Assembly (NCBI GenBank): GCA_031289855.1
Contig: JAITOR010000026.1
Coordinates: 1 to 46,348 of the forward strand
DNA from: Rickettsiales bacterium
GTDB taxonomy: Bacteria; Pseudomonadota; Alphaproteobacteria; Rickettsiales; UBA1997
Direction: 5' to 3'
DNA: 46,348 nt
The notes under the pieces were generated by a model. It ran no database searches. It saw only the letters and a program-made list of their open reading frames with translations, and was not told where the DNA came from. Numbering within the stretch: the stretch's first letter is position 1; each line of letters opens with the position of its first letter. A program made the translations under genes and the position numbers. Shown here piece by piece: positions 16,089 to 17,342 of this stretch.

Positions 16089-16466
16089 ATGAGTGTTTTA
16101 AATAAATATAAAGTTATGTGGCTTTTTGTGATGTATGATTTGCCCACCACTGAAGAGGAAGATAGGAGATCTGCTTCAAAATTTAGGGCAAAATTGATAG
16201 ACATTGGTTTTGAAATGTCTAATTTTTCCGTCTATTGTAGATGGTTTGCCACGAAGGAAAAGGCCATGCCATACATTGAAAAAATTAAGGAATCCGTGCC
16301 AGAAAATGGTGGAACAGTTAGTATTTTATCAATAACGGACAAGCAATTTGAAAATATAATAAATATATCAAAACCTTCAAAAAAGGAAAGAAAAGAAAAA
16401 ACAAGAGAAATTAGCAAAAGAAAACATCCAGTAATGCAACAGCCAGATTTATTTTCCTTTTTATAA
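16089..16466 (+). CDS. cas2: Cas2 (type II style) with a roughly 30-aa basic C-terminal extension
   Basis: MWLFVMYDLPT...FRAKLIDIGFEMSNFSVYCRW...VSILSITDKQFENI matches the Cas2 ferredoxin-like core. The ATG directly abuts the cas9 stop (TAGATG). The tail reads KPSKKERKEKTREISKRKHPVMQQPDLFSFL. Confidence 0.85.
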   Translation: MSVLNKYKVMWLFVMYDLPTTEEEDRRSASKFRAKLIDIGFEMSNFSVYCRWFATKEKAMPYIEKIKESVPENGGTVSILSITDKQFENIINISKPSKKERKEKTREISKRKHPVMQQPDLFSFL

Positions 16467-17342
16467 CTTCCTTATAAATTCCAAATCATTTCTATTGCCC
16501 AGTAGAAATTGTGCCAATGAACTCACAAAATTTTGTATACAAAACCTATATTCTGTTAACCCCAAACTTCCCCTTACGTTTTCCTCAAAAACACCAATTA
16601 ATTCTTTTTTTGTCTCCACATCCAATTCCGTTCGTCCCATCATCCATAAATTATATACCTTTAGGTCGAGAATTGGTCTAAAGGGCTCCATCAAATCATC
16701 AGCAAGCCTATAGGCATTATAGGGGTGTTTATGAAAAAGACCCAAAGCACAATGTAATCCACTGCCAACTATACATCTTGCCACAATGCTTCGCAAAACG
16801 GCATAACCATAATTTAATAAGGCATTTATACCATCCATTTCTGTATCACGCCTAAAATCATTTCCAAAAAGTGTTTTCCAATATTTTCTTGCACCCTCCG
16901 CCTCTTTATTTGTGGTGTCACCACTCAAAACTCGTTTCGAACATTCCACCAACATTAAATATTCCTTATTTAAAGTTTTTAAAACCTCAGCCTGCATCAG
17001 TAATTTGTGTTTTGTTATTTTTTGCCATAATAAATTTTTAGTGGTTTGTTTCATTTGTATTTGTAATTCAAATATTTTTGCCTGTTCATGATTTGTGGCC
17101 ATTGGTGTCAAAATTGCAATTGGAATATATTTTTCGTCACACAACACAACGGGAATATTGTTTTCAGCCAACCGGACCAATAGAGTATTGCTATAAATAA
17201 CATTATACCCACTAATAATAATCACATCTAAATTGTCAATGACGAATTTTCCAATTGGTTTATTATCCTCACTAACCACGAAAAAACCATCCTGTAATGA
17301 CAAATATTTATTTTTTGAAATTTCAACAATTTGATTTGCCAT
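16461..17342 (-). CDS. cas1: Cas1 integrase (type II style), on the strand opposite cas9-cas2
   Basis: 293 aa with NKEAEGARKYWKTLF, DGINALLNYGYAVL, GLFHKHPYNAYRLADDLMEPFRP (the conserved Cas1 E/H/D region). Its stop codon overlaps the last cas2 codons within TTATAA. Confidence 0.9.
   Translation of the reverse strand: MANQIVEISKNKYLSLQDGFFVVSEDNKPIGKFVIDNLDVIIISGYNVIYSNTLLVRLAENNIPVVLCDEKYIPIAILTPMATNHEQAKIFELQIQMKQTTKNLLWQKITKHKLLMQAEVLKTLNKEYLMLVECSKRVLSGDTTNKEAEGARKYWKTLFGNDFRRDTEMDGINALLNYGYAVLRSIVARCIVGSGLHCALGLFHKHPYNAYRLADDLMEPFRPILDLKVYNLWMMGRTELDVETKKELIGVFEENVRGSLGLTEYRFCIQNFVSSLAQFLLGNRNDLEFIRKL

Follow-up and report, generated by a model that had tools for sequence, protein, structure and literature searches.

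Can the three-gene operon of a type II-C CRISPR-Cas system be taken apart while all three of its genes stay intact? Type II-C has been defined by a conserved cas9, cas1, cas2 operon (Chylinski et al. 2013, PMC3737331), and one locus of a Rickettsiales bacterium carries these genes in another order. The stretch of DNA analysed, called the window here, is the whole contig JAITOR010000026.1 (46,348 bp; C55 in our numbering), part of a metagenome-assembled genome (MAG; GCA_031289855.1) of 890 kb in 75 contigs that is 80% complete. The sequencing run in which the window is found, X1, is a termite-gut metagenome. In the window cas9 is followed by cas2 on the same strand, and cas1 lies on the opposite strand, convergent with cas2; this order is written below as cas9>cas2><cas1. 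The following features define the locus.

12921 to 16088, forward strand: cas9, about 1055 amino acids (aa), in an open reading frame (ORF) that is open from TTG 12870; matches TIGR01865 (E=2.6e-178), HNH_4, RuvC_III and Cas9_a.
16089 to 16466, forward strand: cas2, 125 aa; matches PF09827 (8.6e-14) and TIGR01573 (7.6e-15).
16461 to 17342, reverse strand: cas1, 293 aa, convergent with cas2; matches the type II family TIGR03639 (2.3e-77; 260 bits, cut-off 120).
16461 to 16466, both strands: TTATAA palindrome, the last sense codon plus stop (TTA-TAA) of cas2 on the forward strand and of cas1 on the reverse strand.

This gene order is read directly from the sequence and is not a statistical signal, and the gene calls are far beyond chance. 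ORFs and family matches bear out the original prediction, made from the letters of the window, that the layout is real and non-canonical. The cas9 stop (TAG, 16086-16088) abuts the cas2 start (ATG, 16089-16091) with a spacer of 0 nucleotides (nt), and the ends of cas2 and cas1 overlap by the 6 nt at 16461-16466, both as predicted. The set has the content of a type II-C system: a Cas9 with RuvC and HNH domains (motifs GLDLGETSLG, EIEHILPFS and DHRHHAIDA), and a type II Cas1 and a Cas2 adjoining cas9. What is lacking is the co-directional cas9-cas1-cas2 operon, since the order is cas9 (+), cas2 (+), cas1 (-). With canonical II-C loci of the Neisseria meningitidis and Campylobacter jejuni type (PMC3737331) the window shares the Cas9 of about 1055 aa with both nuclease domains, the type II Cas1 (TIGR03639) and Cas2, the absence of a fourth cas gene and the presence of promoter-bearing repeat-like units; it differs from them in gene order and in having no assembled array. 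In the ORF that opens at TTG (12870-16088), residue 24 is where the Cas9 family match starts; cas9 itself likely starts at the ATG at 12921 (MNMENNYILGLDLGETSLG), which would put a promoter-like TTGACT-17-TAATAT upstream of it. Within cas9 there is also a perfect 24-nt tandem duplication (14048-14095), by which FKDKEVNN is repeated in the protein.

The junction of cas2 and cas1 is no misassembly. A Logan contig from run X1, made with another assembler (3756 nt, depth 7.9), covers 13719-17474 with 0 differences and 0 gaps, crossing both gene junctions and all of cas1 at uniform depth. Since X1 probably stems from the source sample, the contig counts as a second assembly and not as second data; runs X2 and X3 cover next to none of the stretch, with short partial matches only. 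Within 11000-19500 exact inverted repeats reach 15 nt at most, too short for an assembler to flip a segment. Both cas1 and cas2 end in proper stops, and their conserved C-terminal motifs reach the join.

The order is also rare. Loci were annotated for cas9, cas1 and cas2 with profiles built from the matches, and arrays were looked for too; a single Cas1 sequence used as query matched nothing in the genome contigs, and the loci were recovered by alignment-based scans. Relatives of Cas1 in metagenome and genome collections gave 136 loci, among which the window and one other, G014, are non-canonical. The same two are the non-canonical members of the 22 type II loci found in 126 searched genomes of the window's family. 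No such locus occurs in a sample of its order (27 loci; 400 genomes) or among the best matches in a sample of its class (29 loci), and the lower-scoring matches of the class sample (20 loci) contain two, G714 and G594. These sets overlap, and together they hold about 200 distinct loci, all of which read cas9>cas1>cas2(>array) except the four just named. The order is array>cas1><cas2<tracr-like cas9> in G014 (tracr, trans-activating CRISPR RNA), cas9>cas2>array<cas1 in G714 and cas1>cas9>cas2>array in G594. A literature search found no description of the order cas9>cas2><cas1 and no paper on a split layout of the G714 or G594 type. The window thus holds a real, rare scrambling of the type II-C cas operon.

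Where this order arose can be read from the trees. Those of Cas1, Cas2 and Cas9 all place the window beside two canonical loci of uncultured Rickettsiales MAGs, L071 (CALXSB010000092.1) and L072 (CALXXG010000115.1), with identities of 50% for Cas1, 61-62% for Cas2 and 41-47% for Cas9. This sister group shares with the window a G+C content of about 0.29-0.30 and the Cas2 C-terminal motif ...QLxLF; it differs in that cas1 and cas2 overlap by 10 nt, and in L071 an array of 12 repeats follows cas2. Because the three gene trees agree on L071 and L072, the cas genes belong together and the order was derived in the window's own lineage. Close relatives with the canonical order at identical sequence, which the original prediction had named as the mark of a local misassembly, were not found: the nearest canonical relatives share 41-61% protein identity, which argues for a lineage-specific rearrangement and not for a misassembly.

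The other displaced loci have histories of their own. G014 is sister to canonical G036 and G016, and G714 and G594 are sister to each other, so placed that three changes of state are required on the Cas1 tree and on the Cas9 tree. The approximately unbiased (AU) test on Cas1 rejects a clade of the window with G714 and G594 (p=0.016) and a clade of the window with G014 (p=0.001). A common origin of the window with either is rejected by the trees and these tests, and the comparison of sequences points to at least three independent origins of a displaced cas1, namely those of the window, G014 and the G714/G594 lineage. The locus of G014 (L018; contig G014:C17, 3709-10462), from the window's own family, is alike in several respects: cas1 and cas2 are convergent, with stops 7 nt apart, the array side lies at the 5' end of cas1, and the Cas1 tail is shortened. 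The differences are that cas9 points the opposite way compared with the window, that a tracr-like anti-repeat (6635-6670) stands between cas2 and cas9, and that the locus runs from a 20-repeat array, with TTGACA-16-TACAAT in each repeat, through a terminator to cas1> and then <cas2.

A single inversion cannot yield the window's order, as had been predicted. The change from the canonical cas9>cas1>cas2>array to cas9>cas2><cas1 needs two events or more, which would have taken place in the lineage of the window itself, and two routes may be proposed. In one, cas2 alone would have been inverted and then the cas1-cas2 block; in the other, cas1-cas2 would have been duplicated in inverted orientation, after which each gene lost one of its two copies. 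The order of events is one that we infer. Either route would put the old array side at the 5' end of cas1, and this is where the repeat/anti-repeat unit of the window and the array of G014 are both found. Serial rearrangement of type II loci is known from the Mycoplasma type II-A systems (PMC3737331), where it includes a change in cas9 orientation; those loci belong to a different subtype, the gene concerned is another one, and their cas1 and cas2 do not converge.

The ORFs that flank the locus encode an NMO-like protein, a flavoprotein, GltX and an exonuclease-helicase; neither csn2 nor cas4 is present. In a congeneric genome (G001; L257, contig G001:C70) a gltX with 73% identity to window 17930-19510 has different neighbours on both sides: the upstream sequence is unrelated, and the downstream neighbour is a homologue of window 45633-46022. 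No cas locus lies beside gltX in G001. Synteny blocks between the window and this genome are very short, and such genomes rearrange readily.

The explanation that we favour for the whole, and hold with moderate confidence, is a genuine type II-C set that was rearranged in its own lineage, in which the overlap of gene ends comes from genome compaction and the adaptation genes are probably under relaxed constraint. A different explanation would make the layout a selected regulatory design, with cas1 uncoupled for separate control of adaptation and with antisense overlap, or transcriptional interference, between convergent transcripts. The sites that bear on it are listed here.

12862 to 12898, forward strand: promoter-like cassette of cas9 (AAATTTGACTTTAAA, a G12 spacer, TAATAT), with TTGACT-17-TAATAT at 12870-12898.
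17446 to 17480, reverse strand: promoter-like cassette of cas1, TTGACT-16-AATAAT with TG (17473 to 17446), sigma-70-like, 10/12; a consensus match only.
17560 to 17733, reverse strand: guide/tracr-like unit 5' of cas1, with a promoter cassette (17733 to 17697) and a repeat/anti-repeat (17625-17607 and 17595-17577).
16379 to 16475, reverse strand: terminator-like element, an AU-rich hairpin (16475 to 16401) that includes the cas1 stop and a U-rich tract (16400 to 16379), antisense to the insert in the cas2 tail.

The promoter-like site of its own that had been predicted for cas1 is thus present, as a match to the consensus. It is about 94% identical over 33 nt to the guide-RNA promoter at 17696-17728, and an exact 15-mer of the cas9 promoter recurs inverted in it at 17463. 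Promoter-like sites of one type therefore head three units (12870-12898 on the forward strand; 17725 to 17697 and 17473 to 17446 on the reverse), and as the cas1 promoter copies that of the guide and shares the 15-mer with that of cas9, common rather than separate control is indicated. The claim that the join has no room for terminators is only partly right. After cas2 on the forward strand there is no comparable terminator-like signal (z=-0.7). On the reverse strand cas1 does have a terminator-like hairpin and U-tract, placed inside the antisense of the cas2 tail; the hairpin folds at -23.1 kcal/mol (z=-2.2), and 4 of 200 shuffled sequences fold equally well.

The tail-to-tail overlap had been taken for something special to the locus, and this is not borne out. 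Tight convergent ends are the norm in the MAG, whose 170 convergent ORF pairs have a median gap of 7 nt; 25% of them overlap, and in 52% the ends come within 10 nt of each other. Next to the locus, for example, the gltX and exonuclease-helicase genes overlap by 4 nt. Since convergent overlaps are common genome-wide, the overlap is compaction and gives no evidence for antisense control; the 6 nt shared by cas2 and cas1 are a by-product of genome compaction and not a regulatory device.

From these sites an expression scheme may be drawn. The cas9 and cas2 genes would form a bicistron, with cas2 translated by termination-reinitiation at TAG/ATG, and cas1 would be a separate convergent unit read from a duplicated, predicted promoter. 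That cassette would have been copied from the neighbouring guide-RNA promoter, with a -35 region in common with the cas9 promoter, and cas1 transcripts may end at the hairpin and U-tract in the antisense of the lengthened cas2 tail.

For the regulatory design there remain the displacement of cas1 at least three times independently (window, G014, G714/G594 lineage), the close spacing of the two stops in G014 as well, the lack of a terminator-like site after cas2 on the forward strand, and the G12 tract, which is found only in the cas9-cas2 promoter and could uncouple cas9-cas2 from cas1. Against it stand overlaps throughout the genome, a cas1 promoter that copies the type of the other two units, and a terminator-like hairpin for cas1. 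In the G714 lineage, moreover, a bidirectional terminator hairpin separates the array from cas2; the rearranged loci therefore do not have antisense overlap as a common trait. Separate or antisense control, as proposed from the letters, appears weakened by the genome-wide overlaps and the common promoter type, and we regard the selected design as unlikely, though it keeps some standing.

The next alternative is a decaying locus, in which the adaptation genes are dead relics, Cas9 works with a fixed guide-like RNA only and the gene order is an irrelevant scar. The condition of the proteins bears on this. Both cas1 and cas2 are open and full-length. Residues E147, H204 and E219 of Cas1 line up with the catalytic positions in type II-A Cas1 structures, D17 of Cas2 is conserved in the alignment with solved Cas2 structures of type II, and Cas9 retains its catalytic RuvC and HNH motifs. 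Of the alignment columns conserved to 90% or more, the window keeps 38 of 40 for Cas1, 20 of 22 for Cas2 and 83 of 88 for Cas9. The rates of change are less even: since the split from L071 the ratio of branch lengths, window to sister, is 1.75 for Cas9, 3.84 for Cas1 and 8.24 for Cas2. The slower pace usual for Cas1 and Cas2 has been lost; judged from these rates, constraint on the adaptation module is probably relaxed. The termini have changed as well.

16370 to 16466, forward strand: remodelled C-terminal tail of Cas2, with a basic insert of 11 aa and, after the family-terminal ...LF, 3 additional codons (SFL).

At 30 aa this tail is the longest among 129 homologues (median 16). Cas2 of the relatives ends in ...P[ED]Q[LY]xLF and a stop; that of the window reads ...QQPDLF-SFL, extending to the shared TAA. 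The QPDLF at this C-terminus (16437-16466) had been considered as a clamp-binding-like motif and was rejected, being the family-wide end motif of Cas2 extended by SFL. The Cas1 tail is short, with 7 aa, where the median is 15 and L071 has 18.

The state of the array also counts here. In the guide/tracr-like unit an inverted repeat (I25, 17577-17625) has 19-nt arms, 89% complementary and 11 nt apart; Rfam at gathering scores gives no match in the window. A CRISPR array was sought in the window and the whole MAG, and only coding repeats were found. No second copy of the putative 36-nt repeat occurs in the window or the MAG at up to 9 mismatches, and the repeat unit has no match in viral contigs or phage records. 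The promoter cassettes were also compared with the CRISPR repeat of L071 as possible kin; the similarity is not above background, and the idea was dropped. A short contig of run X1 has a different character. It is 210 nt long, at a depth of 67.8 (8.6 times the 7.9 of the genome), and consists of 17445-17595, 29 further nt and 17445-17474 again, so that it closes a 180-nt cycle in the assembly graph, next to cas1. The 29-nt insert was not found in the MAG. The cycle might be a collapsed structure, tandem or array-like, in which a promoter, an insert of spacer size and a repeat follow one another beside cas1.

Decay of the locus would fit the lack of a CRISPR array in the 46-kb contig or the 890-kb MAG, the fast change of Cas1 (3.8 times the sister lineage) and Cas2 (8.2 times) relative to Cas9, and the remodelled termini of both proteins. 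It fits poorly with open, full-length cas1 and cas2 whose catalytic residues are kept, and with the retention of 38/40 and 20/22 conserved columns despite strong deletion pressure on the genome. As for the missing array, the MAG reaches only 80% completeness, assembly of arrays often fails, and the 180-nt cycle at 8.6 times the depth may be just such an unassembled array-like structure. We consider decay improbable.

A bolder proposal takes removal of cas1 to be a recurrent selected solution in the II-C systems of host-associated Alphaproteobacteria, and the 'lone repeat' of the window to be a collapsed array of about 9-12 units of promoter, spacer and repeat, with a 180-nt period, beside cas1. 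In all three origins cas1 borders on the guide or array side, which bears promoters, and is read in the same direction as it. We give this combined proposal little credence, a shade less than decay. Also near the guide/tracr-like unit is a copy of a dispersed repeat of about 105 nt (17736-17840, with another at 33383-33483), of which about 30 copies are scattered over many contigs of the MAG at 73-91% identity. The extended -10 of this repeat (TGATGTATAAT) is conserved, and there are also an AGGAGG box and a mini-ORF (TTG AAA AAA ACA TGA); the ATG that follows opens no long ORFs, and no consensus fold was found.

The window could further be taken for the split layout of gut Alphaproteobacteria, cas9>cas2>array<cas1, from which the array had been deleted. 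The split lineage (L239 in G714:C24; L246 in G594:C16) does have cas9 directly followed by cas2 and cas1 displaced, and in G714 cas1 is also inverted, as in the window. In G714, however, cas1 lies beyond an array of 24 repeats, with a terminator also in between; the window has a 6-nt overlap of cas2 and cas1 in that place, and its repeat-like unit is on the 5' side of cas1. In G594 cas1 is upstream of cas9. The cas9 and cas2 genes overlap by 23 nt in both, against 0 nt in the window. Identity to G714 is 26% for Cas9, 34% for Cas1 and 34% for Cas2, against 41-47%, 50% and 61% to L071, and the AU test given above (p=0.016) rejects the common clade. Membership in the split lineage is very improbable.

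Weakest of all, and scarcely credible, is a chimeric or flipped join near 16460, for which one can cite the low depth (about 8x) and a loose contig end at 16464, and which is met by the other assembler's contig that crosses 13719-17474 without a difference, by the lack of any inverted repeat above 15 nt, and by proper stops and C-terminal motifs that are intact up to the join.

Lineage-specific rearrangement of a genuine II-C set is therefore the explanation that we keep, and several observations weigh against it. One X1 contig stops matching exactly at 16464 and continues with 144 unlike letters; this tail was not found in the MAG, and the loose end may reflect differences between strains, or the contig may match in part by chance. 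Two Cas1 homologues, P0002 (55%) and P0004 (52%), are nearer to the window than L071 (50%), and were compared as proteins. The relatives whose gene order was compared are distant (41-61%), and sister species may share the order. Relics of cas genes were sought in 12600-12925 and 17343-17929, and nothing rose above noise, so the path is one that we infer. Promoter use, read-through and coupling of cas9 to cas2 are predicted from sequence. The faster change of Cas1 and Cas2 could be adaptation after the rearrangement instead of relaxed constraint.

The importance of a single locus is modest; its functional reading is a prediction, and the overlap of the gene ends speaks of genome compaction only. 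Rearranged loci of this kind may be misjudged by annotation pipelines that look for the canonical order. The minimal cas9-cas1-cas2 operon, part of what defines type II-C, can be dismantled while its three genes remain intact, in the window by a layout in which cas2 is tied to cas9 and cas1 stands on its own predicted promoter. Together with G014 and the G714/G594 lineage, this makes at least three independent break-ups of the operon. Should spacer acquisition persist in the rearranged systems, the Cas1-Cas2 integrase would be able to assemble without cas1 and cas2 being coupled in one operon.

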